From Candidatus Hydrogenedentota bacterium (GTDB taxonomy: Bacteria; Hydrogenedentota; Hydrogenedentia; Hydrogenedentales; SLHB01), in NCBI GenBank assembly GCA_020848835.1, contig JADLHJ010000054.1:97916-161915 (forward strand): a DNA stretch of 64,000 nucleotides, in the 5' to 3' direction. Position 1 is the first letter of the stretch; each line of letters starts with the position of its first letter. This document shows, piece by piece, positions 2,977-46,197 of this stretch. The notes beneath the pieces are model-generated. The model had not been told where the DNA came from. It searched no databases and saw only the letters and a program-made list of their open reading frames with translations. A program made the translations under genes and the position numbers.

Positions 2977-2988
2977 AGGGAGAGTGCG

Positions 2989-21036: not shown

Positions 21037-21659
21037 AACCAGGCGCGAAAGTCTTGATTTTGCTGGCGCTTGGTGCCGCGGCCCATTTTGCGGTCGGAGC
21101 AGCACAGTCACGCCCAAGCACGAATGCGGCAATATCACCGCTCACTGACATACCGGCATCGGTCATGGGGTACCGTCAGACAGGTCCAGATATTCCGGTG
21201 GATCCTCACGTGTTCGAAATGTTGGACTTTCCGGACATACTAATGCGTGATTACACGTCGCAGAACGGTATTCCGGTGCAACTTACCGTGGTGCGGTCGG
21301 GTACGACCCGACGCAGCTTGCATTTTCCGGAGGTGTGCCTCACCGGCCAAGGATGGGAGGTCGAAAAACAGTATCGCTCTCCCGTGAGCGGCTCGTTCGT
21401 TGCAAATCGTCTGGAGATCTTTAAAGGTGAATACGAACAAGCGGTGTTGTACTGGTTCATGACCGGAGTTCGCCCCACGGACAGTTACGCGAAAAATTCT
21501 ATGTACTGGGCGAAGGAGCGCCTCCTGTTTCGTTCGCCGAGGACGATGATGGTGAAATTAAGCACGACGGTCGGCAGCGCAGGCGCCGAATCCGCGTTTG
21601 GATACCTTGAGGATTTTGCCCAAAACCTGACACCGATACTGCAGAAACGCTTCGAATAG
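21033..21659 (+). CDS. epsI: exosortase-associated EpsI protein
   Basis: N-terminal TM, LMRDY, SLHFPEVCLTGQGW, AVLYWF; coupled to xrt (GTGA overlap). Confidence 0.88.
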   Translation: MKPGAKVLILLALGAAAHFAVGAAQSRPSTNAAISPLTDIPASVMGYRQTGPDIPVDPHVFEMLDFPDILMRDYTSQNGIPVQLTVVRSGTTRRSLHFPEVCLTGQGWEVEKQYRSPVSGSFVANRLEIFKGEYEQAVLYWFMTGVRPTDSYAKNSMYWAKERLLFRSPRTMMVKLSTTVGSAGAESAFGYLEDFAQNLTPILQKRFE

Positions 21660-26212: not shown

Positions 26213-26274
26213 GACTGTCGGTAGCGGTTCTTGGGGCAACAAAACTCGCGGGGAAAACAAAAAGGAGAGTGTGT

Positions 26275-27192
26275 ATGAAGAAACTGCTATCTTTTCGCAG
26301 CAGAGTAGGACCGAAATTGGCTTCGATGCTGGCGCTCACACTTGTGTGTGGGACCAGCGCCTTCGCGACGCCACTCGGCACCGACATCACGTATTACGAC
26401 AATGATCCCAATCCTGCCAATAGTAATGGGAATGCATGGTACGATGGGGATGCCGATACCCGTCCGGGCATACGTGAAGACCAAGAGACCGAACCCGGTA
26501 CCGTAACAACCCAGACTTGGGACCTTGAAGGCGTGTTTATCGGTGCCGGTGATATCCTCAGCATCGTAGGCCAATTCCCATTTGCAACGGGGATCGCAGG
26601 TGGTTCCGGCAGTGGTACCAATGGGATTTTCGACTCAGGGGATATCTTCCTCTCGGTCAACCCAAATCTGGCCGACGTCCAGAATCCGAATGGCGACGGC
26701 ACCGGTTATCAGTACGTAATCGATATCACGTCAACGAACACTGCTGACAGCGGGTTGGCGGCGACGTACACGATTTACAACGTTACGGGCCTGACGACGT
26801 CTACCGGGCTGATCGGCGTGACGGGTGGCCCGGACACCGGACCGAACCCGTATCGTTATGGTTCGGGTGGTACCGCCGTCGCAGGAGGCACCGGAGCCAT
26901 TCTTCTGACTAGCTATAATGGGAATGGTGGACCTGACGACCCGGACTTCCAGGGCACGACGCCGCACTATGTTCTAAGCGGTTTCGACCTGACAGTTCTC
27001 GGCCTCAGCAACTCCGACAATCTGTACGTCCATTACACGATGCAGTGTGGAAACGATCTATTGACCGGATATATGACCGGGTATAACCCTCCGCCACCAC
27101 CAGTTCCAGAACCGGCAACCATGCTCATCATGGGACTCGGTCTGGCGAGTGCAGCGCTTGGGAAGCGCAGTGTTAAACGGCTGATTTCGTAG
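26275..27192 (+). CDS. PEP-CTERM sorting domain protein 5
   Basis: AAGGAG RBS then ATG 26275; signal ..GTSAFA-TP; C-terminus PPPPPVPEPATMLIMGLGLASAALGKRSVKRLIS. Confidence 0.92.
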   Translation: MKKLLSFRSRVGPKLASMLALTLVCGTSAFATPLGTDITYYDNDPNPANSNGNAWYDGDADTRPGIREDQETEPGTVTTQTWDLEGVFIGAGDILSIVGQFPFATGIAGGSGSGTNGIFDSGDIFLSVNPNLADVQNPNGDGTGYQYVIDITSTNTADSGLAATYTIYNVTGLTTSTGLIGVTGGPDTGPNPYRYGSGGTAVAGGTGAILLTSYNGNGGPDDPDFQGTTPHYVLSGFDLTVLGLSNSDNLYVHYTMQCGNDLLTGYMTGYNPPPPPVPEPATMLIMGLGLASAALGKRSVKRLIS

Positions 27193-27676: not shown

Positions 27677-27813
27677 TATTTCGCACGATTGGGCCTTTGG
27701 GGAAAAGCTGTATTTCTGATTTCCTCACAGGCTCGCTACATGAATGTCTTGTAGGGAGAGCGTTATTGGCAACCATCGCACGCTTTGGATGTACAGACGT
27801 AAGAGGAGAGGAC

Positions 27814-30800: not shown

Positions 30801-31776
30801 TACCGTGGACAACGTTGCGCCTACCGCCGCGATAGCCCTGTTGGATCCGAGCCCCACCAATGCGAACGCGGTGCGCTTCAGCGTGCAGTTTAGCGAAAAT
30901 GTCGCGCCATCATTCTCGACAGGGGACCTGACAGTTTCAGGAACCTTGGCGATCGGTGCAACGGTTGCCATGACGGGTTCGGACCCAACCTACACCGTTA
31001 CGGTGACTCCCTCGAATCCAACAGCCGATGGAACTATCGGTCTGACGATTGGATCCGGCATCGCGGACAGCGCAGGAAACGCGTACGCTGGCGGTAGCTC
31101 GCCGAGTTCCTACACAATCGAAAACGTTGGTCCATCTATCTCCATTGGAGCGCCTTCAGCAACCGCGACACGTACGGGCGCGGTTTCATATACGATCACC
31201 TATGGCGGAGCAGACTCAATTGGCCTGCTGGCCTCAAATGTATCTGTCGTTTCAACCGGCACGGCCTCCGGCACCGTCGCAGTTTCCGGGAGCGGGACGA
31301 TCGCCCGAACGGTAACAGTTTCCAGTATTTCCGGCGACGGAACGCTGCGAATCTCTATCGCGCCTGGGACCGCTTCCGATATTGCCGGGAACCTGGCACC
31401 TTCAGCGCCCTCGAGCAGCCCGTTCGACGTAGACAACACTGCGCCGACAATCACAGTAAACGGCTCGCTCATGGAGTACATTGAAGTTGGCACGCCGTAT
31501 ACCGACGCAGGTGCAACGGCGGTCGACAGCAGGGATGGCGACATCACGGCGCAAATCACCACAACCGGTGCCGTGAATTGCAACGTAGAGGGTGCACACT
31601 TTCTAACGTATAACGTTTCGGACAATGTGGGAAACGCAGCCGCGCCTGTTCAACGCACGGTAGTCGTTGTTCCACCGCTTCCCGATGACCTCCCTGTGGA
31701 CACGCGCTTCGTTTTGATCGCGCTTCTGCTAGTTGGAGTTGCGCAGGCGGGTCGACGCATTCGTCAGAGCCCGTAG
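27814..31776 (+). CDS. secreted M64 (IgA peptidase-like) metallopeptidase with Ig-like repeats, DUF5011-like domain and C-terminal anchor
   Basis: LVILGDGYT, IIHEFGHTFAGLADEY (28954), NCLMK, FCPVC. Start uncertain: TTG 27814 after AGGAGAGG, ATG 27862, or track start 27697. Confidence 0.88.
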   Translation: MRFETREFQHGSQIRHMNHPYHIGRFQLGFLAGPPATAKSSFVICLIALHFLSLCSFAGIAGHASSRRTTPDDHRQYWQLVIGYDETAMTILSAAEIAPMKKQVITPGLDGAVGIVPYSVDWLDASGKSLYTGSLDLPIGQRLFLGPDMPCKGLVPKQSVIVVRIEGPAAKANFTSLRLRRSAGKALDYLSPDMPSSLTKHEVVLPVGKIKRIGEKEAPPPGPLSVAKIQDTGSDTNRLVLVILGDGYTAANLSAGSFTTAAQNALTAFGNKSPWDVLFNGTNVYRVDVESNQQGADREDGQNGTLVDTYFNSTFWTSGIDRLLTIDFTGRSRAISAADAYVGVGVWDYLFVLVNSTVYGGSGGSIGVSSIHASASEVIIHEFGHTFAGLADEYTTAYPGYPAGDGEPNVDFDYALANLKWSAWVDTGTPLPTPDTSTYNGVVGAFQGARYLTTGIYRPTRNCLMKALGTAFCPVCKEAHVVDYFDIVSLADTLQPTAGTTVDVPPAGTLVSVSPLSIPGLTYQWSIDGSPLGGATGSSVTVYATDLPTQAATLQLNISYPTSLVRSTSFAENYSWTLNKIGDITAPTAGITLIDSNPTNANAVQFGVQFSENVSPTFTAADIAVAGTLAAGASTAVSGTDPNYVITITPANPTADGTIGITIGSAVSDAAGNPYAGGSSPTVYAIDNAAPTISIGSPSSAITRTGPISYPVAYGNADAVTLSTSDVSLLTTGTATGTVSVSGSGTTTRTVTIASISGNGTLAIAIAAGTASDLAGNMAPAPASSTTFSVDNIAPTATVTLEDANPTNADSVHFGVRFSENVAPTFTAADLTVTGSLASGATTSISGTDPDYTVTVTPANPATDGTIGLTVGSGITDGAGNAYTGGSAPAIYTIENIGPTISIGSPSASVTRSGPVSYAVTYGGADSITLSPSAVSLIATGTASGTISVSGSGTVTRTVTISSIAGNGTLRISIAAGTAADNAANLAPAALASTPFTVDNVAPTAAIALLDPSPTNANAVRFSVQFSENVAPSFSTGDLTVSGTLAIGATVAMTGSDPTYTVTVTPSNPTADGTIGLTIGSGIADSAGNAYAGGSSPSSYTIENVGPSISIGAPSATATRTGAVSYTITYGGADSIGLLASNVSVVSTGTASGTVAVSGSGTIARTVTVSSISGDGTLRISIAPGTASDIAGNLAPSAPSSSPFDVDNTAPTITVNGSLMEYIEVGTPYTDAGATAVDSRDGDITAQITTTGAVNCNVEGAHFLTYNVSDNVGNAAAPVQRTVVVVPPLPDDLPVDTRFVLIALLLVGVAQAGRRIRQSP
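29560..31431 (+). repeat. three tandem 624-bp (208-aa) A+B Ig-like units
   Basis: Units start at 29560, 30184 and 30808 (D(I/N)xAPTA..PTNA..V.F.V.FSENV ... TISIG.PS...TRTG...D.AGN.AP). Confidence 0.9.
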
Positions 31777-32126: not shown

Positions 32127-33521
32127 GTGCGTATCATGAATCGGCTTTATCTGAGGACTGCTTGTGGGATCTCTTTGGTCATCGCTCTCTGGATCTGTCT
32201 TCATCAAGTGCGCGCGGAAGTACGTGCCCAAACTTGGACTGAACCGCGAACATTGGTATTTGCAGGTCAAGTACCCCCTGACGACTTTGGCGAAAACCCG
32301 AACGTCAGCTTAGACCCAAATAACAAGATGAATTGGGAGGATGAACCGCCTGCCTCAACCCCTTCGCTGCCGTTGAACTACGGCCGCTGGTCGGGTCCGT
32401 ACAACAACATGTATGGAAAGCGCTGGGTAAGCACCGTCAATAAGTGGTTTCGGCAGGGCACTGCGGCGGGACTTTGGCAGGACCGCTTTCGGAGTTTCGA
32501 CAAGGGTCATTCCAGTATCCCGCTAGCGCTATTCCCACAGCTTGAGGCAGAAGACCCTGTGACCGCATTTGGACCGTCGTTATCAAATGTCTTGGTACAA
32601 CACGTCACATTTGGCGTGCAGTCCTACGGTATGGGCGGACAAAGTGTTGCCGAATCTTTGTCTCGAAGTAGCCTTCGTGCGTACTACGAAAACGGGACGT
32701 TTAGGCGCGAGGGCCATCAGCACTTTCGAATGGTCCTGTATGAGCGAAACTTTCTCTTCGTCGCCCCAGCGGTAGACTCATATGGCGTTCGTGGTGACCA
32801 GTTTACATTTCTGAGTCCATTCTACTTGCATTCGGTGGGGCGTTCAGGAAGCGATGCGCGGCTTCTGCAACCCATCTTGCTGGCAGCGGCCGCTTTGCCT
32901 CCGAAACTGAAGACGCGCATGCTACGGTGCGGCGTCTATGTTCCAACCCTCATGCAGTTGTTCAAGGGCGCGATTGCCGGCGATATCTCCTCGGCCAATG
33001 CACACCTACCTGCATATTCGCTTCCAGACGAAGCCAAGGAAGGTAACACAGGACGGACACCTTTCCTTGACCGCCTCATTACCACCGCACATGATCTTAC
33101 GCATATACCGCCAGTCTGTCGCTTTGCAATAGAGCCAGTTTATGTGAAAGCGACTGGAAAGTTTCCGTATGGCGGCAAGGCATACTGGGAGAAAACACCG
33201 TATGCCTTTTTCGGCGCGCTCCGCGAAGGTCAGGAATTTCAGCTTGAAATCGACCTTCGCGACAGTTGGGTCGACGACGGATTTTCACTGAAAGATTTCT
33301 ACACCGCGGTGTTGCGCGGCCCGGGTACCATCGAGAAACAGAATAGTGAAGGCTCGAGATTGCGCATACATGTTCCATGGACTGTGATGGACATGGATAA
33401 AGACTATCGCACCGACATTCTGCTGCTGGTCTCTGACGGGACCTATTTTTCTGCGCCCGCGTACATCTCTATACGCCATGTCCACAAGCTCGATCCGATG
33501 GTACTTGGTTTGCGCCGATAA
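32127..33521 (+). CDS. secreted hypothetical protein
   Basis: N-terminal signal; D.GHS..FPQL, S.GRSGSD, PTLMQL segments resemble a conserved hypothetical family (recalled, not searched); start may be 32136. Confidence 0.75.
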   Translation: MRIMNRLYLRTACGISLVIALWICLHQVRAEVRAQTWTEPRTLVFAGQVPPDDFGENPNVSLDPNNKMNWEDEPPASTPSLPLNYGRWSGPYNNMYGKRWVSTVNKWFRQGTAAGLWQDRFRSFDKGHSSIPLALFPQLEAEDPVTAFGPSLSNVLVQHVTFGVQSYGMGGQSVAESLSRSSLRAYYENGTFRREGHQHFRMVLYERNFLFVAPAVDSYGVRGDQFTFLSPFYLHSVGRSGSDARLLQPILLAAAALPPKLKTRMLRCGVYVPTLMQLFKGAIAGDISSANAHLPAYSLPDEAKEGNTGRTPFLDRLITTAHDLTHIPPVCRFAIEPVYVKATGKFPYGGKAYWEKTPYAFFGALREGQEFQLEIDLRDSWVDDGFSLKDFYTAVLRGPGTIEKQNSEGSRLRIHVPWTVMDMDKDYRTDILLLVSDGTYFSAPAYISIRHVHKLDPMVLGLRR

Positions 33522-33537: not shown

Positions 33538-36500
33538 CTACTGGGCGCTGTCCCCCCGTGCAAGTGACGAGTCGCGGCCCTCTTTCGTTGTTTCAGTACC
33601 CGTCTTGGCGTTTTGGATTTCGCGAAGTTCGGTGCGCCAGTGAAGTTCGCTCGGTTCCAAGTCAATTGCCTGAGTCAGGTACTTAATCGCGGAGGCTTGA
33701 TCACCCGTCGCGCCGTACGCTCTCGCCAGCGTCGCATAACATCGCGCATTCTTGGGCTCGGTAGTGACCGCCTTTTGGGCTAGGCTGACCGCCTCGTCCA
33801 ATCTCTTGCCTTGCTCGCAAAACGAACGTGCCAATCCAATTTGCGCGGCGGTCAGATTGGCGTCACGTTCAAGCGCATTCTGATAGTTCACTTCTGCAAG
33901 GGCATAATCCCGTTCCCCTTCGGCAATCGATGCGAGCGCAACAAACGCTTCAGGCTTGGCTGCCGGAAGCCGCACAACCGTCTCCAATTCCTCACGCGCT
34001 TTGGCACGATATTTTTCGTTCCCGGTTCGCATCGCCAGCGCCTGCCAGCTTAGAGCAAGCACCGTCCGCTCTTCTGTTGCGTTTTGCGGTATGAACGGCG
34101 TAACTCGCTCAAGCCAACCAGCGGAGTCCATTTCGTTTGGAAGTCTGAACGTCGCAATACACGCCCACAACATTCGAGACGCGGTGGAACTCTGTAGCTT
34201 TGGCGACAGCAACGAAGCGACGTCGTCTACACGGTTGGCCATCAACAGGCTTTGCGTTCGCGCTGCTTCACTTTGCCCATCCGCATCCTGACTAGTTTTG
34301 TCAGCTACGAGATAGGGCATGGTCGCGCGATTCCTACCCAATAAACGGCCAATGCGTTGCTTCGCCGCTACGTCGAGCAGATCACCTGCGTTGGGCAACG
34401 ATCGAGAACGTCGGAACGCCTCGCCAGCCGCTTCAAATGATTCGACCCACCGGCCCGCCGCAGCGAAGGATTCGGATGCCAGCTCGGCCGGTTCCACATC
34501 GGTCGGAAAATCCAACTGGGCTTGTGCAGCAACTTCGGCGGCTTCATCATGCTTACCCGCTTGCCCCAAAAGCCGAACGAGCAGCATCCTCACCGGCAAG
34601 TAGGTAGGATGGGCTTGAATGAGTTGCCGGAATTGTTCGACCCTGCGGAGGGGGTCATCCTGTGGTGTTTCATTCAATACTTCGAGCGTTTCTTTTGCTG
34701 CATCGAATCGACCAGCATCCTCCACGCCAGATATCATGATGGGCATCGCCAAAAAGCGCGTCACCAACTCCTCGAAGAGCGCGCGATCCCGCCGCATAGC
34801 GCGAAAGAGCGCTTCGCTCGGACAAGCGGCAAGGGCCTCTTCAGCGAGGTCCAGCGCGGCGCTCACATTCCCTGAACGCATCAGAAACGCCAAATACTTT
34901 CGCCACGCGTTGGGGTTTGCCTTGTTACCCTCGATCGCAGCCCGAAATAGTCTATCGGCGTCGTCTGCATTGCCGTAATAGCCATGGAACTCCGCCTCGA
35001 GGACCTCACGCGCTCCGGAATCGAGTTGCAATTGCCCCAGAACGTCGAAAGCAGCCTTCGCTTCGTCCAGTTTTCCCAGTGACCCAAATAAGTCTAGTGC
35101 AAAAACCACTTCTGCGATGGATGGATTGTCTTCAATCAGCGTCTTGGCGATCTCTTGCGCATTCGGAAGATCGTCGTTCATCCGATACAGCTCTGCCAAC
35201 AACAGATCCGCCGGTGGACCATCTCCACGTTTCGGATTCGCCGCAAGCAGCTTTTCGATTGCCGCGGCATAGCGACCCTCTTGCGCCGCGACCATTGCGG
35301 AAACCTCGTGAGACGCGCGATCAGAAACTTCACCGTTCGCCAGTATCGCCGCCAATTCATCGTACGCTCTCGATATATCGCCGCGGCTGTACAATATTCG
35401 CGCCAAATCGAGTCGCGCACTATTGTTCTTGGGCGCCAATCGAACGGCGTTTTGCAGATTGGAGAGTGCGCCTTCCGAATTGCCGATCCGTTCAAGTGCC
35501 GTGGCGATGAGCAAGTATTGCTTGATGTCGAGAAATCCTGCTGCGGTGGAAGTGTCCTGTAACAACACCACTGCTTCGGCCGCGGCCTTTTCTGAATGAT
35601 CGTTTTGGAGTAGCCAACGCGCTCGCGCGGTCCGCCACGTGTAACCAGACTCGCCCGTCAACTCTTTCAATGCGCTGATCGAACTGTCTATAAGCGCGGC
35701 ATTCTCCCACGCCGCCTCGGATTCCAACACGCGCGTGAGTACCATCGCATTCTTCGGTTCAACACTCGTGACATAATCCGACCAGGCCAAAGCAGCCTCG
35801 GCGGATCCACTTCGTTCGAGGTACTGCGCAATCGCAAACTTCCAATCCGGTCCCTCCCCCGCTACCTTGGCTGCCCCAGTTAGAAGTTCCAATCCACGCT
35901 GGGGATCTCCTTCCGCATTCGCAGCGAGCGCCTGTTCCAGCGCAAGATTAGGAGTAGAGCCGAATGAGCGCAAAGCGTACGCGTAGCATGCATCGGTCTG
36001 CCCGAGGCTGAAATCTCTGCTGATTCGAGCTAGACGAAGCACCGTAGGTTCGGGCAGTGCCTCCTCTCCCGCCAAAGCTGCACCGAGTTTCTCCCCCGCC
36101 AAAGTGGTGTCGCCACGTCGAGCAAGAAACTCTATCAGTAAGGGAAGCGTTCTAGGTTCCATGGGCCGGATGGATTGAATCTTCTCCACAAGGTCCCATA
36201 GCCGGCTCCGCTCCGCGTCCGATAATAGTTCGAGGTCAACGCCAGGGATTTCCGCCGCCGCTGCTGCGAGATAAACGTCTTGAGGTGAACGAAATAGCGC
36301 TTGCTGCGCCAGCGCAGTTGCGGCCGTCACGTTGCCGCGCGCTGAAAGTACTTGGGCGGCAAGCAACAGCGGTTCACCCCAAAGGGGGGACATCTGCGCC
36401 GCAAGGCTGCAGGTCCGCAGCGCCAGGTCGCTCTCACCGTTTCGCTCGTATGCCCTCCCCAAGTAGTAGGTGAAATACGGATTCCGCCCATCCAACTCGG

Positions 36501-37659
36501 CGTACTTCTTGCAGTTTTCAACGAGATCCCGCGCCGGAATTTCTTTATCTAGGTAGAACACGCTTAGAATTTCCCGCCAGGCAATCGCAGCTCGGTCGTC
36601 GCGCTTTTCCAGGTGCTCAACGACTCCTTTAACCTGCTCCCACTTCTCAAGCTTTACGTGCGTCAAGCCAAGGATTCCTAACATCTCGGAGTCGCCAACA
36701 TCCGCTGGTACCTGATCCATCAATTTCACCACTGCGCGAGTGTTTCCCGACTCGAAAAGCCGGCGCATTAGAAGTCGTTTCAGTTCTATCTCCGAAAATC
36801 GTCCAGCGGATTTTGCGAGCATATCGAGGTTCAGACGCTGAAGCTCGAATCTATCGCCGGAGAATACAGAGAGGCGTGACAATAGGTTGTCGATGAGTTC
36901 AACAGTTTTCGTATTTGTAGAGTTTGTAACGGGGATCGCGGCGGCCCGCTTCGTCCAGTCCACCGTCTCGTCACGCTTTCCGGCGAACTCATGGGCAATG
37001 GCTTGCACGATGTGATATTCGGCAGAACCCCGGTCAAATCCAGGCACTGTGTCTGGATACCTAAGAATCTCGTCCACCGGCTTTTTCATTGACCGAATCA
37101 CGGAAAGCGCAAGAATGTGATTCTCCACGTCAGCAGGTTCCAATGCCGCGACTTTCTTGGCATCTCCTAACGCCGCATCATACTTTTGCATTCGCATGTA
37201 GGCTTTTGCTCTTGCCTTCAACGCGTCAACATCGTCAGGCTTTTTTGCCAGTATGTCCTCTGCCAGGGAGATAGTCTCGACGCCGTAGCCGATGTCGGAG
37301 TACACACCGACCAGCTCACGCTGAGCATCGCTGTTGTCAGGTTGTATACTGAGAATCTGGCGAAGATGGGAAATAGTCTGCTCAAAGTGCTTTCCATTTG
37401 GAAGGGGGACCTCGCGGCGGGCCTTCGCATATTCAAGCATTGCTTCTACGTCGGTATCCAACCCAAATCGCTGCAAGTAGCGTCCAATTTGGTCCAACGC
37501 GACCTCATGGTCACCAACCTTCGCCGCATCCATTCCACGCTGACGACACTCTAGCGCTCGCTGCTTTAATACATATTGGCGCACGAGCAAGGCTGCCCCC
37601 CCCGCAGCGAGGAGAACTACGAAAGCACTTGCGACGATTATGAGACGACGATAACGCAC
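33538..37659 (-). CDS. giant N-anchored TPR protein
   Basis: GTG start, N-terminal TM, TPR repeats throughout 1373 aa; last gene of the - strand operon. Confidence 0.87.
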   Translation of the reverse strand: MRYRRLIIVASAFVVLLAAGGAALLVRQYVLKQRALECRQRGMDAAKVGDHEVALDQIGRYLQRFGLDTDVEAMLEYAKARREVPLPNGKHFEQTISHLRQILSIQPDNSDAQRELVGVYSDIGYGVETISLAEDILAKKPDDVDALKARAKAYMRMQKYDAALGDAKKVAALEPADVENHILALSVIRSMKKPVDEILRYPDTVPGFDRGSAEYHIVQAIAHEFAGKRDETVDWTKRAAAIPVTNSTNTKTVELIDNLLSRLSVFSGDRFELQRLNLDMLAKSAGRFSEIELKRLLMRRLFESGNTRAVVKLMDQVPADVGDSEMLGILGLTHVKLEKWEQVKGVVEHLEKRDDRAAIAWREILSVFYLDKEIPARDLVENCKKYAELDGRNPYFTYYLGRAYERNGESDLALRTCSLAAQMSPLWGEPLLLAAQVLSARGNVTAATALAQQALFRSPQDVYLAAAAAEIPGVDLELLSDAERSRLWDLVEKIQSIRPMEPRTLPLLIEFLARRGDTTLAGEKLGAALAGEEALPEPTVLRLARISRDFSLGQTDACYAYALRSFGSTPNLALEQALAANAEGDPQRGLELLTGAAKVAGEGPDWKFAIAQYLERSGSAEAALAWSDYVTSVEPKNAMVLTRVLESEAAWENAALIDSSISALKELTGESGYTWRTARARWLLQNDHSEKAAAEAVVLLQDTSTAAGFLDIKQYLLIATALERIGNSEGALSNLQNAVRLAPKNNSARLDLARILYSRGDISRAYDELAAILANGEVSDRASHEVSAMVAAQEGRYAAAIEKLLAANPKRGDGPPADLLLAELYRMNDDLPNAQEIAKTLIEDNPSIAEVVFALDLFGSLGKLDEAKAAFDVLGQLQLDSGAREVLEAEFHGYYGNADDADRLFRAAIEGNKANPNAWRKYLAFLMRSGNVSAALDLAEEALAACPSEALFRAMRRDRALFEELVTRFLAMPIMISGVEDAGRFDAAKETLEVLNETPQDDPLRRVEQFRQLIQAHPTYLPVRMLLVRLLGQAGKHDEAAEVAAQAQLDFPTDVEPAELASESFAAAGRWVESFEAAGEAFRRSRSLPNAGDLLDVAAKQRIGRLLGRNRATMPYLVADKTSQDADGQSEAARTQSLLMANRVDDVASLLSPKLQSSTASRMLWACIATFRLPNEMDSAGWLERVTPFIPQNATEERTVLALSWQALAMRTGNEKYRAKAREELETVVRLPAAKPEAFVALASIAEGERDYALAEVNYQNALERDANLTAAQIGLARSFCEQGKRLDEAVSLAQKAVTTEPKNARCYATLARAYGATGDQASAIKYLTQAIDLEPSELHWRTELREIQNAKTGTETTKEGRDSSLARGDSAQ

Positions 37660-37678
37660 GGATTGCTGACGTCCTTAC

Positions 37679-40108
37679 TTAACTTAGCGTGGCGGGAAGA
37701 GTACCCACCCCATATTTTGACAGGTGTGATGACAGCCAGACGGCTCTGGCGAGCGGGCCAAACTTGGCATACTCTTCTGGACAATTCGAAAAATGCTGCC
37801 CGTCGGCGTCCGCGTCTTCTGGGTGCAAGTCACGGTACCCACCTACCGACACTGAGGTCACTGAGAAAACCGAACGAATAATGTCTTCCTTGCGTGCCCG
37901 GTTAAAAATCACCCCCATCGGAAGCGCGTTGAGCAATTCAAGATGGTGCATCGCCTGCCGGATGACACCGCTCGGATCATCCCGCGAAACCACCATGATG
38001 ACACCATCCGTGCTGGACGCGAAAATGGATGAATCGTGGGGACCCGGTACTGGACCGGTATCCACCAAAATGACGTCGTATCCTGGTCTAAGTCGCTCTA
38101 TAAGTGCTCGAACAGACGCTGGCGAAAGCGAGCTAGTCGGTGCGTGCCCGTTACCAAACGTCGGCATGACATGCAGGTTCGTGATGCCAATATCTGCAAC
38201 ACAGTTCTCCACATTTTCACCCCGCAGTGCATCAGCCAGTCCGAGCCCGTATTCACTCTGCAATGCCAGGCCGTCTTCAAGGTCCTGTTCATTGATATAC
38301 CCCAGACGCAGCAGACTTTGTCCAAGGCGTATGTTGGAATCTTGAGCAAGCGCAAGAGCCCGTGTGAATTCCGCGTCTGTAATAACGTTGTACTCTCGAA
38401 ATACGTGTCCAAGCTTTCTCCGGCCCACAGCGTCCGTGCTTCGCGTTAATCCTCGTCCGATTAGGTCACCATCGATAAGGAGCGTTCGTGCGCCTGCGGA
38501 GGCAAATGATATGCCCATCGCAAGCGCAACACTGGTCTTACCGGTCTGACTTGTGCCTCCTGTGATTGTGAGTGCAAGACCACTGTTCGACACGATCTGC
38601 GTTTGGAGCATCATCCGAATGCTGTGCACGCAGTGAGCGGCACGGGCAATGTCGGCGGCATCAGACAATTCAATGGACAATTCAGGGAGTGCGCCAAGAA
38701 GTCTCGGGCGAACGGCTTCCGCATCCACAATATCGCGGATCCTCGGATTTAAGAGACCAAGCAACATCACGAACCCGATTCCTAAGCCACTACCCGCCAA
38801 CCCGCCAAGTATCGTAACTTGGGCTTTCCGGCTGGAGTTGGAAGGTTCGATTGGCATAACCGCATCGTTTACTACAATTACACGCCCTTTCAAATTCTGG
38901 GTAAGTAGCGATTCCGTGGTAATTTGTTCTAATCGCGATTTCACCAAATTCAAGTTGTCCTGAATTCGGGACTTCTCCGCCTGTTGTTTCCCGACCTCCA
39001 AATTCTTCTGTCCGAGTTCAAGAACTCTAGGCTTGGCATCGTCCATCAGCTTCTGCAGCTGTCGCACTCGCATCTCGGCGCGCTGCGGATCCAGAATTGC
39101 AATGCGTCCGGATACCGGGTCACCCGCCGTCAACGTGGCGCCCCCGACAGGGCTTTTGCGATAGACCTCGGCATACTTTTCGATCTCTTGCTCTTGCGTC
39201 TTTAACTGCTGAACGGCAGTTCGATACTCCTTGTTGCTTTCGGTACCGACGTAACGAGCGGCGTATTGGTCGACGAGTCGTTGCAGGCGTCCCTTCTCAT
39301 CGACGAGTTGCTGCATGCGGGGGTCTGTTGCGGCGATCTGTTCGACAGTTAGTGATGATGCATCATCCGATTCCTTCGTGCTGGACTTTCCTAATGCCTG
39401 TGCCGTAGCCAGGTCAATTTTCGCGCTTTCTAATTCTATTTCGAGTTCCTGAAGCCTTGAGAGTGCAAAGGCATGCATCTCGCCAAGATTCTCGCTGCCA
39501 AATTCAGTTGCAATATTAGAAATTTTTGTTTCAATATCTACCATTTGGATATTCAAATCGTTGATTCTCTTCTCCAAAGCCTCTAACCGTTCACCGCTTG
39601 TCGTCGTGTCAATTTCGCTATACAAGATGAGATATGCATCAACAAGAGACTTCGCCGCCGCTTGAGCAAGTTTGGGGATCTTGTTTTCGCACGAAACGAA
39701 AATCAGCTGACTTCCCTTGGGTGAAGTCACGGTTATGTTCTTCATAAACTCCACAATATCTTCCAGCGAGGCCTTTCCGCCCGCATTCTTCCAGGTCTCG
39801 CTGCCAATCGCTTCCTCGACGACGCGGCGGCTTTTCACCAGCGAAATCTGCGTTTGGATGAACGAATCGAACATTGGCATCATGGCGTTTTGCTCGTTTT
39901 CGTACAGCACTTTCGGAAGGACCGGGGCGACTCGAATTATCGTCTCGCTCGCGTATTCCGGTTGTATTGCAAAATAGCCAACGGCTGCACCCATCCCACC
40001 CAAAAAGACGCCGAGTACTGTCGCGAGCAGGTAGCGTCCGCGTAACAGCCTGTGTACCAAGAGCAGTGGGTTTTGGTCTGATTGTGGGGCAGGATTCTTT
40101 GACAGCAT
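37679..40108 (-). CDS. wzc: Wzc-like polysaccharide co-polymerase / BY-kinase with MshEN-like insertion
   Basis: TM-coiled coil-TM; Walker A GGTSQTGKTS, A' LLIDGDL, B ILVDTGP; ATG 40108 (the track start 40228 overlaps epsI). Confidence 0.88.
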   Translation of the reverse strand: MLSKNPAPQSDQNPLLLVHRLLRGRYLLATVLGVFLGGMGAAVGYFAIQPEYASETIIRVAPVLPKVLYENEQNAMMPMFDSFIQTQISLVKSRRVVEEAIGSETWKNAGGKASLEDIVEFMKNITVTSPKGSQLIFVSCENKIPKLAQAAAKSLVDAYLILYSEIDTTTSGERLEALEKRINDLNIQMVDIETKISNIATEFGSENLGEMHAFALSRLQELEIELESAKIDLATAQALGKSSTKESDDASSLTVEQIAATDPRMQQLVDEKGRLQRLVDQYAARYVGTESNKEYRTAVQQLKTQEQEIEKYAEVYRKSPVGGATLTAGDPVSGRIAILDPQRAEMRVRQLQKLMDDAKPRVLELGQKNLEVGKQQAEKSRIQDNLNLVKSRLEQITTESLLTQNLKGRVIVVNDAVMPIEPSNSSRKAQVTILGGLAGSGLGIGFVMLLGLLNPRIRDIVDAEAVRPRLLGALPELSIELSDAADIARAAHCVHSIRMMLQTQIVSNSGLALTITGGTSQTGKTSVALAMGISFASAGARTLLIDGDLIGRGLTRSTDAVGRRKLGHVFREYNVITDAEFTRALALAQDSNIRLGQSLLRLGYINEQDLEDGLALQSEYGLGLADALRGENVENCVADIGITNLHVMPTFGNGHAPTSSLSPASVRALIERLRPGYDVILVDTGPVPGPHDSSIFASSTDGVIMVVSRDDPSGVIRQAMHHLELLNALPMGVIFNRARKEDIIRSVFSVTSVSVGGYRDLHPEDADADGQHFSNCPEEYAKFGPLARAVWLSSHLSKYGVGTLPATLS
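38258..38416 (-). other. MshEN-like c-di-GMP-binding domain inside Wzc
   Basis: KLGHVFREYNVITDAEFTRALALA (24 aa) + QDSNI (5 aa) + RLGQSLLRLGYINEQDLEDGLALQ (24 aa). Confidence 0.75.
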
Positions 40109-40127
40109 ATTACAACGCTCGCTCTGG

Positions 40128-40823
40128 TTACGCTTCGGGTACCGATTCGATTCCAGACTCAACCACTGAAATCCAAGGCAACGCTGCCTTGAGCAAAAAC
40201 TCATACTCAACGTTTCGCTCTGCATCACTTAGTGCAGCATCCACAATAAACTGAATACTCGCGGCGCCGAGATACTTTGACGACCCCTCGCGCGCTGCAA
40301 TTTCCAACGAACTCATGTCGGGCGACGTTTTTCGGTTCGGAAGTACTGTGAAATGAAGCACTGCCAACTGCGCACTGTCCCCCGCTGACTCATAAGTAAA
40401 TCCATATTCGGTGGCGTCTACCGCACTCCCGTCCACTGCAAGCGAGACAGGTCGGGCGGTGCGCTGCGTCCATCCCTGGTTGTGATAGCACACGGGAGGA
40501 TAATGACCTAGCAGGCTCCTCACGTCGCTGCCGTGAACGATCAGCAATGTCGCCGACCGCCCTGTTTCGAGATTGCGATAGGTTCTACTTAACGATACAT
40601 TCGCATCGAGTATGCGAAGCGCACCCGCGGAGATCTCGCGGTCAACGCCGACCCAAGGACCAAGACCATAGGGAACGCTGGCGATCGCTTCGCGGATTCT
40701 GGCGTGATATGCGGCAACGCCGGCAGGCACTTGCTCACGATGGACTCTTCCAAGATACACCCCTGTTAGCATTAGCAGGAGGATCAGGGGTGTTACTATC
40801 TTAAACATAGCAATTGCTCTCAA
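40128..40823 (-). CDS. epsI: second exosortase-associated EpsI-like protein
   Basis: N-terminal TM, LSRTY, LGHYPPVCYHNQGW; directly follows the exosortase-like fusion. Confidence 0.82.
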   Translation of the reverse strand: MRAIAMFKIVTPLILLLMLTGVYLGRVHREQVPAGVAAYHARIREAIASVPYGLGPWVGVDREISAGALRILDANVSLSRTYRNLETGRSATLLIVHGSDVRSLLGHYPPVCYHNQGWTQRTARPVSLAVDGSAVDATEYGFTYESAGDSAQLAVLHFTVLPNRKTSPDMSSLEIAAREGSSKYLGAASIQFIVDAALSDAERNVEYEFLLKAALPWISVVESGIESVPEA

Positions 40824-40838
40824 AATATTCGTGCCGAC

Positions 40839-43454
40839 CTAGCCCGCAGAAGCTGGGCTGGCCGCCTCCTCAATTCCGGACTTCGCGGTAAAGTCTGAAC
40901 CCGCGATCCATCTGGCTACGTGCACCATTGCTGCTAGTCCACATACCACCGCGGGTAGCGTGGCAACATCACTCAGTCGGCTTACCCGATTTGCAGACTC
41001 AAGGGACAGATAACCATATATCGCCGCAGTGGGGATTAGCCGGACTGTGTTCAGCGCAAACGCCAGGACTGGACTTGTGAGGACCAGGAAGACTCTCATT
41101 CGCGTACCTACCCGCGCACTGAACGCAAAGGTCAGGCAGACCAGCGTCAAGGCGAATATGATTCCGACTCCGCCAAACGCTTGCGCGACGTCAACCGATA
41201 CACCGTTAATCTGCATGACCCTACTATCCAAACTCACAGACTCACCAACGAAATGCAAGACAACAGCAGTGGAGCGTGCCGTGAAATCTTGTATTGGCTG
41301 GAGAATTCGCAACTGAATGAGTCCTGGTATGGGTATGGCGAACATCAATACGAGAAGCGCTGGCCATAGTCGCCGTGGAAGCTCCGTACCAAGCACAGAG
41401 ACGGCACAAGCTATCGTGATGGTGACTGCACCCATATACCAAAACGATTGAATGAGCTGCGCATCCCCGATCGAGTATAGAATCCAACCCGCCGCGGCGA
41501 TTATTGGGGCGAATATCGTTCCTGACCTTCGTGATAAAAGCGCGCTCTCCCTCCTCGTCCATATCAACCAGGCGGCGGCAGGAATCGCGATCAGACCGAA
41601 GCTGGACTGCAGATCCCGCGTAAGCAAACGCCAGACGTCCCAATATGCATCAGAGGTTATCCACATCGACGCAAGTACCAATGCACACGCGGCGATAAAA
41701 TAGCGTGGCCGCCAATACTGCCTTGCATCGAGCTGCCTCGTTCCAGGATTCTGTGGCTTTACCCGTGCGGGCTTTAAGACCGCGTCGCGACCCGCCCGGG
41801 TCGGTACTGCTTCTTTTCTAAAGCCAACACCAGCCTGTTGAACTCCCTCAACCACAGATGCCGCCTTCACAGACCACGTTTCCTGCTTGACACGCGCACG
41901 GCGCGGAGCGGGATCACCGGGATTCTCGAGCACCCGTTGTATATGCGCGACAAATTGCTGTGCGTCCTCTGCGATCTCGACGTGCGCTTCATACTTAGAC
42001 AGCTCATCAAACGGCGTGCTTACAATCGGGCGGCCAACAGCGAGGTATTCCTTTAGTTTCACGGGATTACATGCCTTGATCCACGCATTTTGATTCCACG
42101 GCATAATCAGCACATCGCACGCCGCCATATATGCTGCCACTTCGGTGTATGGTTTGCGGCCAAGCATGTACACATTCGATAAATCGCACCATTCCTCTGG
42201 CAAAGAGCAGCCACCGACTAGCACAAATGAGCAATTCGGCATCGCGCGAGCAACACTTAGAAAAAGCTCAGGATCAAACGTGTGCGCATCGATTCCGCCG
42301 ACAAATCCAATTCTTGGTCTGGGAATGTCCCGCACGTCATTGGGTTCGGTCGTAGCGCCACGCCCCGCGGCCTCGAACTGATCGAAATCAACCCCATGAT
42401 CAACGAATAACGCCGACCGGCATTCGGAAGTTTCGCTTTCATACACAGAGGTAGAACAGAAAAGCGTTACGTCTGCGCTCTGCTTAAGCGTCAAATCGTA
42501 AGCGCGAATGCGAGCGGGATCGACGCCGGGATAATGCTCAAAACGGTCCGTGCGCTGATACACGAGCCCCGCGGCAGGTATCTTCTCGAAGACTTCTGCG
42601 GCCGGTGGGCATGCGACCCACAACAATGGGGAGGAAATGCCCATGTATTCCGCCGCGTCGCGGACTTGCTCGATTAATAGGGCCCTTGCCAAGGAGGTCT
42701 GGTGGAACTTGGGGATGGATACGGGACTCAATACGGCAAAGTTTTCGGAAACTACCTTGAGTCCTCTCCCCCAACTCTTTACTTTGCGAGCTACCCGCCC
42801 AATAAAAACGCGACCTTCACCGACACGAGGAGTACGCATGCCTATGGAGTTCACATACACCACCGGCATGTCCCGGCTAAGTTCCCGCATCATTTGGACG
42901 TCATAGTGACCGCGGTTGTGGTACCACCAGTCCACGCCACCAAAACAAACGATGCCATCAACTTTGCCTTTGCGTGGCCGTTCGATGAAGTCGGAAATCG
43001 CTCTGCACAATTCTGGCGACGCCTGTCGTGAAATCCTGTCCGTAGCCTTGAGTCGATTCAGTTCGGTATCGAGACGAAGCGCCAGTTCGTGCTCGTCCCA
43101 GGCAACGGATATAAGTCCACGGTCGCCAAATTGACGTGCCGTCGCGACTTGGTGATCATTTCGCGTCTCGCGAAGTACGCCGCGACGAGGCATGACAACG
43201 ATTGGCTTACCCAATTCGAGCGCCGTCAATATGGTGCCCATACCAGCATGGGCAACAATTACGTCAGCCGCCTCAACGAGTTCGCGAAGCTTCTCGGGAG
43301 CGACAAACTTCTCGAACTCAATGTGTTTCGGGAGGTATGCTGTATTCCCCACCTGCGCAAAGATACCGGTCGCATTACGCTCGCCAGCCCACTGATCGAC
43401 TGCTGCCACCAATCGGTCAAATGGCATCTGAGCGCCTACAGTAACCAGGATCAT
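40839..43454 (-). CDS. triple fusion: PssE/Alg13-like GT28-C + GT4-type glycosyltransferase + degenerate exosortase-like domain
   Basis: aa1-158 MILVTVGAQMPFDRL..HAGMGT..RNDHQ; aa~165-545 PRIGFVGG..PVKLKEYLAVGRPIVST; aa580-871 about 8 TM with NTVR but AFGG in place of the xCxG motif. Confidence 0.88.
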   Translation of the reverse strand: MILVTVGAQMPFDRLVAAVDQWAGERNATGIFAQVGNTAYLPKHIEFEKFVAPEKLRELVEAADVIVAHAGMGTILTALELGKPIVVMPRRGVLRETRNDHQVATARQFGDRGLISVAWDEHELALRLDTELNRLKATDRISRQASPELCRAISDFIERPRKGKVDGIVCFGGVDWWYHNRGHYDVQMMRELSRDMPVVYVNSIGMRTPRVGEGRVFIGRVARKVKSWGRGLKVVSENFAVLSPVSIPKFHQTSLARALLIEQVRDAAEYMGISSPLLWVACPPAAEVFEKIPAAGLVYQRTDRFEHYPGVDPARIRAYDLTLKQSADVTLFCSTSVYESETSECRSALFVDHGVDFDQFEAAGRGATTEPNDVRDIPRPRIGFVGGIDAHTFDPELFLSVARAMPNCSFVLVGGCSLPEEWCDLSNVYMLGRKPYTEVAAYMAACDVLIMPWNQNAWIKACNPVKLKEYLAVGRPIVSTPFDELSKYEAHVEIAEDAQQFVAHIQRVLENPGDPAPRRARVKQETWSVKAASVVEGVQQAGVGFRKEAVPTRAGRDAVLKPARVKPQNPGTRQLDARQYWRPRYFIAACALVLASMWITSDAYWDVWRLLTRDLQSSFGLIAIPAAAWLIWTRRESALLSRRSGTIFAPIIAAAGWILYSIGDAQLIQSFWYMGAVTITIACAVSVLGTELPRRLWPALLVLMFAIPIPGLIQLRILQPIQDFTARSTAVVLHFVGESVSLDSRVMQINGVSVDVAQAFGGVGIIFALTLVCLTFAFSARVGTRMRVFLVLTSPVLAFALNTVRLIPTAAIYGYLSLESANRVSRLSDVATLPAVVCGLAAMVHVARWIAGSDFTAKSGIEEAASPASAG

Positions 43455-43981
43455 AGGACGGCTCCACGGTAATATGGCCCAGAATCAAGCTCTAGGTGGG
43501 GCCATTGGGTAAGCCAAAGATCGGCATATAACTCGACCTTTTGGCCGGCTTTGGACAGGCGCTCCACATTTGCGATGCTGTCAATCCAAACGGTGTGGGC
43601 GCCGAGAAGTTTACCCAAGCGTATAGCAAAGAAACCGGGGGCTGCACCGGTCGAGACGACAAAGTCTGGTCGTTCGCGGATGAGAATCACTAGCAACTGA
43701 AAAGCCTGAACGATCAGCTTGAGTTTGTTCCATTCCGTGGCGTCCGCAACGGCATATAGCCGCATACCCGGAACGTCTGACGCGTACATTTTATCAACGG
43801 TCACAAACGTGACATCTTGGCCGCGGAAGACATGCGCGATGCGCAACATCTGCACCCAATGGCCGCCTCCGGAGGACACGGCCAGAAACTTCTTCTTGCG
43901 CTGAGGCAAGCCAGCCTCTGGAGGTGGATTTATAAAGCTTGTCGAAAGCGTACGCTCTACGTCTCGCTCGGTCTGCAACAT
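43451..43981 (-). CDS. pssD: PssD/Cps14F (Alg14-like) glycosyltransferase subunit
   Basis: SSGGGHW, VSTGAAPG, IDSIAN, LTQWPHL; stop overlaps the fusion gene start; ATG 43981 after GGAG preferred over track start 44200. Confidence 0.88.
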   Translation of the reverse strand: MLQTERDVERTLSTSFINPPPEAGLPQRKKKFLAVSSGGGHWVQMLRIAHVFRGQDVTFVTVDKMYASDVPGMRLYAVADATEWNKLKLIVQAFQLLVILIRERPDFVVSTGAAPGFFAIRLGKLLGAHTVWIDSIANVERLSKAGQKVELYADLWLTQWPHLELDSGPYYRGAVL

Positions 43982-44904
43982 TCTTCGGTACTCCGCCGGA
44001 TTCCCCGCAGTCTCAAGAAAATTCTGCTTCGCGTGCACCGCACCCCACGAAGAGGGACAGACGCACGAAAACGCGGTAATCCTTGCCGCAGGAACCTGAC
44101 AGAGTGCAGCCTTAAAGTCGCACGCAATCAATTCGCCTAATGGGCCAATTAGCGACTCGATGTTGTAGGGCCTACAGATCCCATCTCCGCGCAAAAACAT
44201 ATCGGAGATCGCGAACGTAACCAGTCGAGCCGAAAGCTAACCCTCTTACCCCAAGGATTACTACGACATTTATCCAAGCAAGCGCACCCGACAAGAGTAT
44301 AACTCATTACTTCCCGTTCGGCAATCGCTAAATTCTTACCTTGCTGAGCTTAGCCTGACCAACCAATGTTCCGCAGCCGCACCATACCTTGTCATGACTC
44401 GCCAAACCTCATGGCGTATACAAAGCTCAAGATCGATGTTCGGAACCGCCCGGGCTCGTACGCTTTCTCAACCACATATTTAGTGTGCAATTTTCGATCC
44501 AGTTCTTCGAATTATGCAAGCAATCGCAATCAGGAAAGTTATGGTGCCATTACGAAGTAAAGCCACATCTAGCCATAGTCAGGGGTGAGTAATTACTTGT
44601 CGATAATGAGTAACTCTTTTCCGCGCGAATACCGGGGGGGCTCTACGCGTTCCGAGCACTAGGGAAGTTTTGCAAGTATTTGGGGTAAAACGTTGTTGTC
44701 CATAGACTAACGCGCAAGGGAAATCAGCACCAAGAGGCCGCGCCAATCGTGCGTAAAGCGCGGGATTTTCTGCTGAAATAACCGATGCGTCACTCATGTT
44801 GCCGATATCAACTAGAGTACGATAACATACAGGTAGGAAAGAGGTTCCGCCACTGTGTGCGAAATTTTCGGCTGTGAATACCTCTGGTTGGCTGTTGGAT
44901 ATTA

Positions 44905-45780: not shown

Positions 45781-46197
45781 AACACTGCCTCGTGAGCTTC
45801 ACGAATCCCTAGTCTCTTTCTTTCCACGTGCTCCTCGAAATTCCCGAATCAACGTTGGATTCAATATGGGGGTTGCCTTTCTCTCGAATACGGTACCGTG
45901 CCATTTACAGTGACAAAACTTGTCGCAAGTAGGCTCGATGTGCACATAAAGGTACTAATAGGCATCTTGAGCGCGGTTTTAATTTCAATCCAAATCCTTT
46001 AGCAATAGACGGTTATGGGCATTCGCGCCGCACGGCGTGATAATTGCTCTTCTCCCTTTGGCATACTATGGTACCGCCACGGCAATTGGCGGGCGAGTGT
46101 CCCGTTTGCTCGGGAGTAGGCTATGTGTCGCCTCCTCCAAACGGATTTCATCAAGTGGACGACAAGCGAAAATTTAGTTCGGCTGGAGTACAGAGCC

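Follow-up and report, generated by a model that had tools for sequence, protein, structure and literature searches.

An exosortase domain joined in one reading frame to two sugar transferase domains forms the core of a five-gene cassette on the minus strand of a 64,000-nucleotide (nt) stretch of DNA from a Candidatus Hydrogenedentota bacterium (contig JADLHJ010000054.1, positions 97,916 to 161,915; hereafter, the window). The cassette is conserved among relatives that carry the fusion. The reading favoured here, which is held as probable, is that the exosortase domain of this cassette has lost its catalytic triad in the lineage of the window and now serves as a selected pseudoenzyme scaffold, beside an independent exosortase system whose triad is intact.

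The cassette comprises five co-directional, closely packed genes in the list of open reading frames (ORFs), minus strand, positions 33538-43981. The genes, together with the domains of the fusion and one insert discussed below, are as follows (aa, amino acids; TM, transmembrane; AF2, AlphaFold2 model):

43451-43981, minus strand: PssD/Alg14-like glycosyltransferase partner subunit, 176 aa (NCBIfam, Pfam)
40839-43454, minus strand: fusion of PssE/Alg13-like, GT-B/GT4-like and exosortase-like domains, 871 aa (Pfam, NCBIfam)
43050-43454, minus strand: PssE/Alg13-like domain of the fusion, aa 1-135 (Pfam, NCBIfam)
41820-42962, minus strand: GT-B/GT4-like transferase domain of the fusion, aa 165-545 (Pfam, NCBIfam)
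40902-41726, minus strand: exosortase-like multi-pass TM domain of the fusion, aa 577-851 (Pfam, NCBIfam)
40128-40823, minus strand: EpsI/DUF3485-like protein with an N-terminal membrane anchor (Pfam PF11984, TM prediction)
37679-40108, minus strand: Wzc-like protein, a polysaccharide co-polymerase (PCP) with a BY-kinase-like P-loop ATPase, 809 aa (NCBIfam, Pfam, AF2, Foldseek)
38255-38422, minus strand: MshEN-like four-helix insert in the Wzc-like protein, aa 563-618, candidate cyclic di-GMP (c-di-GMP) site (NF053729, 5HTL, AF2)
33538-37659, minus strand: TPR protein with an N-terminal membrane anchor, PrsT-like but not an equivalog, 1373 aa (TPR Pfam)

The genes pssD and the fusion overlap by 4 nt (43451/43454); a gap of 15 nt separates the fusion from the EpsI-like gene, and the two following gaps are 19 nt each. 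A first-pass annotation of this DNA had described five tightly spaced minus-strand genes, and their coordinates, overlap, gaps and domain calls were all recovered with ORFs, Pfam and NCBIfam. Its range of 15-19 nt for the gaps stands as well, except that the first gap may be 30 nt, the length of orthologues suggesting that the EpsI-like protein likely starts at the ATG at 40808 (226 aa). The pssD start at 43981 is consistent with the 175-188 aa of its orthologues and with a conserved GGAG-containing block immediately upstream.

The PssD-like protein scores 67.1 bits against the NCBIfam PssD model (cut-off 110) and 27.1 bits against Pfam Alg14 (cut-off 27), and no TM helix is predicted in it. 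The fusion is matched by three models, namely PssE (101.9 bits), Glyco_trans_1_4 (59.5 bits) and Exosortase_EpsH (99.5 bits). Its PssE half remains under the NCBIfam PssE cut-off of 120 and exceeds that of Pfam Glyco_tran_28_C (42 vs 22 bits); the best NCBIfam matches of the PssD-like and PssE-like parts are PssD, PssE and the beta-1,4-glucuronosyltransferase WelK. The AF2 model of the fusion (pLDDT 78.9) consists of three confident domains separated by two disordered linkers of low confidence, and Foldseek matches of its transferase part include the GT-B enzymes MshA, GumK and PimA. The EpsI-like protein reaches 44 bits with PF11984 (cut-off 26.1) and 25 bits with TIGR02914 (cut-off 42.8). 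For the 1373-aa TPR protein, the PrsT model TIGR02917 gives 136 bits vs a cut-off of 312, and the N-terminus is a plain membrane anchor without a lipobox.

As in the pairs PssD/PssE, Cps14F/Cps14G and Alg14/Alg13, the first two genes are adjacent, overlap by 4 nt and encode an Alg14-like half followed by an Alg13-like half. Unlike those pairs, they miss the equivalog cut-offs, the Alg14-like half has no membrane helix, and the catalytic half is fused onward.

Catalytic residues of the fused exosortase domain

The invariant motifs of exosortases are C-x-G, N-x-x-R and H-x-x-x-G (Haft et al. 2006, PMC1569441). At the corresponding places the fused domain reads AQAFGG, NTVR and VSRLSD, vs AEACNG, NVxRL and FHDxSGW in intact fusions. 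An alignment of 18 fusions places the substitutions as follows:

41175-41177, minus strand: codon TTT, Phe760 in place of the catalytic Cys (C760F)
40980-40982, minus strand: S825 in place of the catalytic His (H825S)
41598-41600, minus strand: F619 in place of a mostly conserved His
41040-41042, minus strand: Arg805, retained

Moreover, D829 stands where the H-x-x-x-G motif has Gly, and N802 and R805 occupy invariant columns of the alignment.

The domain is recognised by Pfam PF09721 (Exosortase_EpsH) over aa 599-821, with the above 99.5 bits far beyond the cut-off of 25.7, and falls below the curated cut-offs of TIGR04178 (17.3 vs 23), TIGR02602 (73.7 vs 105.55) and XrtA (73.1 vs 208). TIGR04178, the exosortase/archaeosortase signature, gives 58.5 bits for Xrt1, the intact exosortase of the window, and 45-54 bits for intact orthologues of the fused domain. 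AF2 folds the fused exosortase domain as a confident helical bundle (pLDDT about 75-93); the model was used for the TM helices, which are under-called by simple hydropathy.

The cassette in relatives and the loss of the triad

Protein searches returned 24 full-length homologues of the fusion at 50-83% identity, from Candidatus Hydrogenedentes wherever the source was named. Gene order was examined in contigs and, for each species, in one genome. Ten loci hold PssD, PssE-GT1-Xrt in one frame, EpsI, the Wzc-like gene and the giant TPR gene, complete and in this order; nine more fusion loci, cut by contig ends, match it, no fused-type locus disagrees, and two loci beginning inside Xrt (L075 and L077) are also compatible. 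An EpsI-like orthologue directly follows the fused Xrt in all cassette loci, and giant TPR orthologues of 1354-1409 aa close the cassette in relatives. The same order in 19 other fusion-carrying loci is far beyond chance, so that the prediction on which the first-pass annotation had staked its system, conservation of the gene order, came through without a dissenting locus.

The triad Cys, Arg and His is intact in 16 of the 18 aligned fusions, the exceptions being the window protein and P0002, which is 83% identical to it. All cassette-type Xrt proteins in the species-representative loci L006-L084 retain the triad, and 68 of the 77 tabulated Xrt ORFs read CRH. With two exceptions among the 18 fusions and none among the species-representative cassette loci, the cassette would ancestrally be a complete exosortase system and not the glycan-only paralogue that had been proposed. 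The earlier description of the fused exosortase as dead thus holds in the window, where the Cys and His motifs are lost, and fails for the family. The changes C760F, H825S and F619 are common to L005 and L087-L089, from four samples; in L090, the next clade out, the triad is intact. No intact orthologue attains the cut-off of a named Xrt subtype, the best score being that of XrtA with 104-124 bits vs 208, so the fused Xrt is a subtype undescribed in the NCBIfam library.

In the Xrt domain, identity between the window and the other fusions is 42.7%, against 62.9% among the others themselves; the corresponding values are 60% and 57.5% for the PssE domain and 68.6% and 70.0% for the GT1 domain. 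Identity deficits in the other cassette genes amount to 10.8 points for TPR, 7.3 for EpsI, 5.9 for Wzc and 2.6 for PssD. The window and its close relative L005 are separated by dS of about 0.65, and between them dN/dS is 0.17 in the Xrt domain, 0.10 in the transferase domains, 0.165 in EpsI, 0.11 in Wzc and 0.065 in PssD. The fused Xrt domain has therefore changed fast on one branch, lost its triad and been under purifying selection since. In the species group of the window the fused exosortase is, as judged from its sequence, a retained pseudoenzyme and not a product of decay.

Decay or artefact was considered as the cause of the lost Cys and rejected. The absence of the catalytic residues and the rank of Xrt as the fastest-evolving part of the fusion might be taken for a pseudogene in progress, or for an error of sequencing or assembly. 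However, all 871 codons are open, and the identical changes occur in the relative L005 at dS of about 0.65 with dN/dS 0.17. The Phe760 codon is also covered by contigs of three independent wastewater/sludge runs with no difference listed there, which excludes an assembly error. Such an explanation is practically negligible.

Triad-less exosortase-like genes also occur elsewhere. A search of the dead domain against 1.84 billion representative proteins gave 1070 matches at E <= 0.001. At least one triad residue is missing in 20 of the 101 near-full-length proteins among the best 150 of the 1070 matches, a share that is possibly inflated, as the query itself is triad-less and the species-representative loci show none. 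The triad-less proteins are mostly nearest neighbours of each other, and the nearest neighbours of the window domain are intact. A metagenome scan for the triad-less protein P0342 found nothing. The stand-alone triad-less proteins are about 295-310 aa long, and the four that were placed in their contigs (L095, L097, L098 and L099) share the gene order WecG, LbH-like, triad-less Xrt, Wzc-like. An EpsI-like gene stands between Xrt and Wzc in L095 and L097, Bac_transf follows Wzc in L097 and L098, and a TPR gene ends L097; no second exosortase was found within 10 kb in L097 and L098. The recurrence of a triad-less Xrt in the context Xrt-(EpsI)-Wzc at four unrelated loci supports a role of the membrane protein that would be independent of protease activity.

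Variation of the fusion itself is seen outside Hydrogenedentota. In Planctomycetota the same genes are unfused and in another order (GT1, PssD, PssE, Xrt, Wzc). Two other N-terminal fusions were met: a 517-aa PssE-Xrt without the GT-B domain (L080:9938-11491, a metagenome-assembled genome (MAG) of Planctomycetota) and a 657-aa hexapeptide/LbH-Xrt (L046:3016-4989, a Candidatus Brocadiia MAG), after which Wzc and an initiating sugar transferase come next.

The cassette resembles the XrtA/EpsH loci (PMC1569441) in having an exosortase, EpsI, a chain-length determinant and tyrosine-kinase-like ATPase, a large TPR protein (PrsT) and glycosyltransferases, with PEP-CTERM substrates in the genome. Unlike in those loci, Xrt is N-terminally fused to two transferase domains, an MshEN-like insert interrupts the ATPase, whose Tyr cluster is missing, PrsK and PrsR genes are missing, and the triad is lost in the lineage of the window. 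Fusions of EpsH with a CAAX protease were taken by Haft as Rosetta stones (PMC1569441), and these, like the Xrt-EpsI fusions (XrtD and others), likewise join an exosortase to a functionally linked domain. There the partner is membrane-bound or periplasmic and sits at the C-terminus, whereas here cytoplasmic sugar enzymes (PssE and GT-B; LbH in Planctomycetota) occupy the N-terminus. No paper was found on an N-terminal transferase-exosortase fusion, on an MshEN-like insert in such an ATPase, or on a lost triad.

The intact exosortase system and the competing readings

The second system of the window is a tight unit of four genes on the plus strand, listed here together with the PEP-CTERM genes scattered over the window:

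16892-20122, plus strand: TPR protein (Pfam, NCBIfam)
20119-21036, plus strand: Xrt1, with an intact triad (EVCGG, NVAR, VHDISG) (Pfam, NCBIfam)
21033-21659, plus strand: EpsI1 (Pfam, NCBIfam)
21669-24593, plus strand: TPR lipoprotein (Pfam, NCBIfam)
2953-3804, 4194-4919, 5406-6212, 13861-14769 and 26269-27192, plus strand: five scattered PEP-CTERM genes of the VPEPAT type (C-terminal tails, Pfam)

PEP-CTERM is supported by TIGR02595 at 18.9 bits vs a cut-off of 16. This arrangement, with its active exosortase and five PEP-CTERM genes, had already been described correctly, the triad of Xrt1 being intact by sequence, and so had the presence of two Xrt/EpsI pairs, one with its triad and one triad-less and fused to transferases. 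The two units were said to face each other: they do converge, but across a distance of 8.9 kb that accommodates four genes, encoding a 221-aa membrane protein, a PEP-CTERM protein, a 1359-aa M64-type peptidase and a 464-aa secreted protein.

The fused domain and Xrt1 share 22% identity, and the EpsI pair 34% over just 62 aa; each Xrt/EpsI pair has far closer orthologues in other genomes. By these comparisons the pairs are old paralogues that belong to separate subfamilies, which settles the question of duplication versus subfamilies that had been raised for them. A recent duplication is ruled out by the same identities.

The order TPR-Xrt-EpsI-TPR is conserved in the Hydrogenedentota loci L085, L086 and L091. 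All three have their own Wzc-like gene, and an OPX exporter and a sigma-54 activator are present in L086 and L091; Wzx and a weak Wzy-like gene occur in L091 as well. PEP-CTERM genes of the VPEPAT type were seen close to the L085 unit, and L091 has one at its edge. Among the Xrt1-type homologues, fusions of Xrt with EpsI (about 520 aa) are common. No Xrt1 operon was seen beside other cassette loci up to 2.6-5.6 kb past the TPR gene, and no cassette within 10 kb on either side of the relatives' Xrt1-type loci; the hit lists of fused-Xrt and Xrt1-type loci in relatives share no contig, the flanks being short. As neither type of locus shows the other in the DNA available, their juxtaposition in the window is not a general feature.

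The following course of events may be proposed for the cassette. From what is known of their families, the PssD-like protein would pair with the PssE-like catalytic half, as in Alg14/Alg13, Cps14F/G and PssD/E, and PssD/PssE with the adjoining GT-B domain would add sugars to a lipid-linked oligosaccharide. The exosortase-like domain would tether this transferase module to the membrane, PssD having no membrane helix. On the periplasmic side, it would work with the EpsI-like protein, the PCP/BY-kinase-like ATPase and the giant TPR protein, parts that seem to correspond to EpsH, EpsI, the chain-length determinant/kinase and PrsT of the XrtA-type loci. The ancestral machine would also cleave a C-terminal sorting signal, the triad being intact in most members. 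In the species group of the window, the triad was lost (C760F, H825S) in a burst of change limited to the Xrt domain, and the triad-less domain would now most likely serve, without catalysis, to anchor the transferases and their periplasmic partners and to act as their scaffold. Processing of the five VPEPAT PEP-CTERM proteins would fall to the intact Xrt1-EpsI pair nearby. The MshEN-like insert may let assembly respond to c-di-GMP, a step that we would not quite call probable. Purifying selection on the triad-less domain makes it reasonable to suppose a non-catalytic role next to an active Xrt. The cassette and the Xrt1 system may possibly be functional partners.

The division of labour proposed in the first-pass annotation goes further and takes the two units as halves of one machine, in which Xrt1 cleaves PEP-CTERM proteins and the transferase-fused complex builds or attaches glycan under c-di-GMP. 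That a triad-less domain is still selected 8.9 kb from an active Xrt would agree with this, and the single Wzc-like gene without any OPX gene in the 64-kb window (the cassette Wzc-like gene being the sole PCP/Wzc-like gene there) is compatible with two systems sharing parts, or with complementary loss, given that the Xrt1 loci L085, L086 and L091 have OPX or Wzc-like genes of their own. Yet the cassette is catalytically self-sufficient in most relatives, and no other cassette or Xrt1-type locus shows the juxtaposition in the DNA available. Moreover, the triad-less loci L097 and L098 manage with no second exosortase within 10 kb, and the missing OPX and a second Wzc may sit elsewhere in the genome. 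A division of labour finds partial support, as a condition that arose secondarily; a single machine of two halves is rather improbable. It is less probable still that the exosortase-like domain is a passive membrane anchor of the PssE/GT module with no specific partner, the cassette and Xrt1 being unrelated neighbours. PssD and the transferase domains do lack a TM helix of their own, and the transferase domains are the most conserved part, but an anchor alone would not call for some 275 residues maintained at dN/dS 0.17, with conservation at many family-specific positions. The EpsI-like partner is retained alongside at dN/dS 0.165, and the stand-alone triad-less homologues anchor nothing, yet are retained in the same cassette. 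Retention of enzymatic activity through another nucleophile or another chemistry is very unlikely. Asn802 and Arg805 are kept, a second Cys 13 residues downstream (LVCL) is conserved in the family, and selection continues; however, the replacements are Cys to Phe and His to Ser, the flanking C-x-G and H-x-x-x-G contexts have changed, the signature score is down from 45-54 bits in orthologues to 17.3, and the downstream Cys lies inside a predicted TM helix.

Several observations weigh against the favoured reading of a conserved cassette with a pseudoenzyme scaffold. We infer the loss of activity in the fused exosortase from the invariant residues alone, and a sequence search of the Protein Data Bank (PDB) found no exosortase structure. 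A link between the triad loss and the presence of Xrt1 is conjecture. A search for PEP-CTERM tails in 84 relative loci, extending 10 kb from the cassette, gave spurious matches and no PEP-CTERM gene, and no sorting-signal substrate can be assigned to the cassette type. NCBIfam scores of PssD, PssE, EpsI, PrsT and all named Xrt subtypes are under their cut-offs. The first motif of the MshEN-like insert is degenerate and the Arg of the second is Pro in the closest relative; in the UBA2224 clade (L001, L006, L007, L015) motif 2 is lost and replaced by unrelated sequence, with the insert itself kept. Finally, a single RNA-type run, with four contigs of 151-253 nt on the region, is uninformative on operon structure.

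Tails of the form VP(L/V)P(A/G/S), followed by a TM segment and an Arg cluster, were noticed on proteins near the cassette loci L081 (two), L083 and L090, at L081:18477-20376, L083:4396-5358 (minus strand) and L090:952-1857 (minus strand); they match no known sorting-domain model, a result that covers VPxP[AG]-type tails near four cassette loci. The M64-type peptidase of the window (27697-31776, plus strand, 1359 aa, Ig-like domains) likewise has a non-PEP tail in three parts, VVPPLPDDLP, a TM helix and RRIRQSP. The cassette exosortase may have its cognate signal in tails of this kind, which are kept as a lead.

The acceptor of exosortases and the reason for their association with polysaccharide loci have been an open question since 2006 (PMC1569441). 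A conserved fusion of sugar transferases with an exosortase is Rosetta-stone evidence of direct physical coupling, to which the other sugar-enzyme fusions add. It is tentatively suggested, as an idea that may well prove wrong, that exosortase-type proteins have a protease-independent role as the inner-membrane hub of the Wzx/Wzy machine, that the lipid-linked glycan made there is the acceptor of PEP-CTERM-type proteins, and that repeated triad loss shows the hub role to suffice. If so, the repeated fusions with PssE, GT-B and LbH would place synthesis of the lipid-linked glycan at the exosortase itself, and the independent triad losses, in the species group of the window and in no fewer than four further lineages, would show that the protein can be retained for its hub role alone. 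The selected natural triad-less versions may be regarded as a ready-made separation-of-function allele and predict for the membrane domain a structural role in polysaccharide assembly that is separable from protein sorting. The hosts are uncultured wastewater and activated-sludge bacteria, and such systems may bear on floc and biofilm formation.

The Wzc-like ATPase and the surroundings of the cassette

The Wzc-like protein, with TM segments at 26-44 and 431-449, has a coiled-coil region in the periplasm and its ATPase domain in the cytoplasm; it matches the Wzz and CbiA models. Its motifs GKT, LLIDGD and VILVDTGP (Walker A, A' and B) align with CapB; sequence matches in the PDB are CapAB, Etk, VpsO and BceF. 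The AF2 model (pLDDT 82, pTM 0.80) has CapAB, Wzc and Etk as top Foldseek matches, with TM-scores on the target of 0.7-0.78 to CapAB and Etk. The protein thus shares with Wzc/Etk/CapAB (PCP-2a) the two-TM PCP topology and a cytoplasmic P-loop domain with all three Walker motifs, and differs from them in a 58-aa helical insert after Walker A' and in the lack of the C-terminal Tyr cluster. Only three scattered Tyr residues are present, and the tail is Ser-rich in the orthologue consensus. As the Tyr cluster is missing, autokinase activity is doubtful.

The insert of about 58 aa is positioned after Walker A' and before the remaining ATPase domain, forms four helices in the model, and extends the distance from Walker A to Walker B to 151 aa vs 93 aa in insert-less relatives. 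It is present in the Hydrogenedentota cassettes, in L080 and in L084, and absent from the unfused Planctomycetota versions. NF053729, a model of the MshE-related c-di-GMP motif, matches it with 34.6 bits (E 1.2e-8, cut-off 38), and MshE itself (PDB 5HTL) with E 0.0086. MshEN consists of two 24-residue motifs RLGxxhhxxGhhxxxxLxxxLxxQ with a 5-residue spacer (PMC5013675). Motif 2 of the insert, RLGQSLLRLGYINEQDLEDGLALQ, fits this published motif fully, motif 1 fails at positions 7, 10 and 24, and the spacer QDSNI has 5 residues. Like the MshEN domains of MshE and NfrB (PMC5013675, PMC8669469), the insert has tandem 24-residue motifs, a 5-residue spacer and four helices, with weak matches to 5HTL and to the NfrB model. 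Unlike them, it has one degenerate motif and is internal to a BY-kinase-like ATPase, a partner unlisted by Wang et al. (PMC5013675).

The designation MshEN-Wzc given earlier is acceptable as far as the match to an MshEN-like model goes, with the provisos that the score is under the cut-off, that one of the two half-motifs is canonical, and that the Tyr cluster is absent. Similarly, c-di-GMP control, which had been assumed with it, keeps the canonical motif 2 in its favour, but the motif is near threshold, its Arg is replaced in the closest relative, and it is degenerate in one clade. Binding of c-di-GMP and control through the insert are plausible by motif comparison; should the insert indeed bind c-di-GMP, this ability was probably lost in the UBA2224-like clade. 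The insert suggests a new entry point of c-di-GMP into Wzx/Wzy-type export.

Upstream of pssD, a 920-nt intergenic region (43982-44904) extends to a divergent Sel1-repeat gene. It is mostly diverged from the close relative L087, with sharply conserved blocks. A consensus scan gave one promoter-like site:

44296-44324, minus strand: TTGCCG, 17 nt, TATACT, about 310 nt upstream of pssD

In the alignment with L087 the block GATTGCCGAACGG.AAGTAATG..(A/T)TATACT is conserved and its surroundings have diverged; 44296-44324 may be a promoter, as far as consensus and conservation can suggest it. Rfam gave no match in the whole window or in the 920-nt pssD leader, and no c-di-GMP riboswitch; a terminator scan remained at chance level. 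The contigs of the RNA-type run are small and exact and lie inside the Wzc-like gene and in the leader (two in 43982-44904), which is weak evidence of cassette expression.

Past the pssD side there follow Sel1, an 889-aa protein, methyltransferases, a Wzx flippase, GT2 enzymes, a weak Wzy-like protein, an acetyltransferase and a deacetylase, the flippase, the Wzy-like protein and further transferases being at 49.8-57.4 kb of the window. With Wzx, a Wzy-like protein and transferases in the neighbourhood, the region is a Wzx/Wzy-type polysaccharide locus. On the other side of the window, a UDP-glucose/GDP-mannose dehydrogenase gene (1209-2531, plus strand) fits a uronic-acid-containing polysaccharide and the glucuronosyltransferase-like matches of PssD/PssE.

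Among the PEP-CTERM genes there are two minus-strand genes of other kinds, encoding an Rce1/CAAX-protease-like membrane protein (7312-8103), of interest in view of the EpsH fusions with a CAAX protease (PMC1569441), and, between PEP-CTERM genes, an 833-aa fusion of a Ser/Thr protein kinase with a WD40 beta-propeller (8332-10833). Two proteins flanking the cassette have no family match and keep their positions in L087: the 464-aa protein with a signal-peptide-like N-terminus (32127-33521, plus strand; 69% identity) and the 889-aa protein (46123-48792, plus strand; 51% identity). A terminase small-subunit-like gene that stands isolated (57569-58078, minus strand), possibly a phage remnant, adjoins a gene for an AMP-binding enzyme with a carrier-protein domain (58359-60167, plus strand), both at the edge of the polysaccharide locus.

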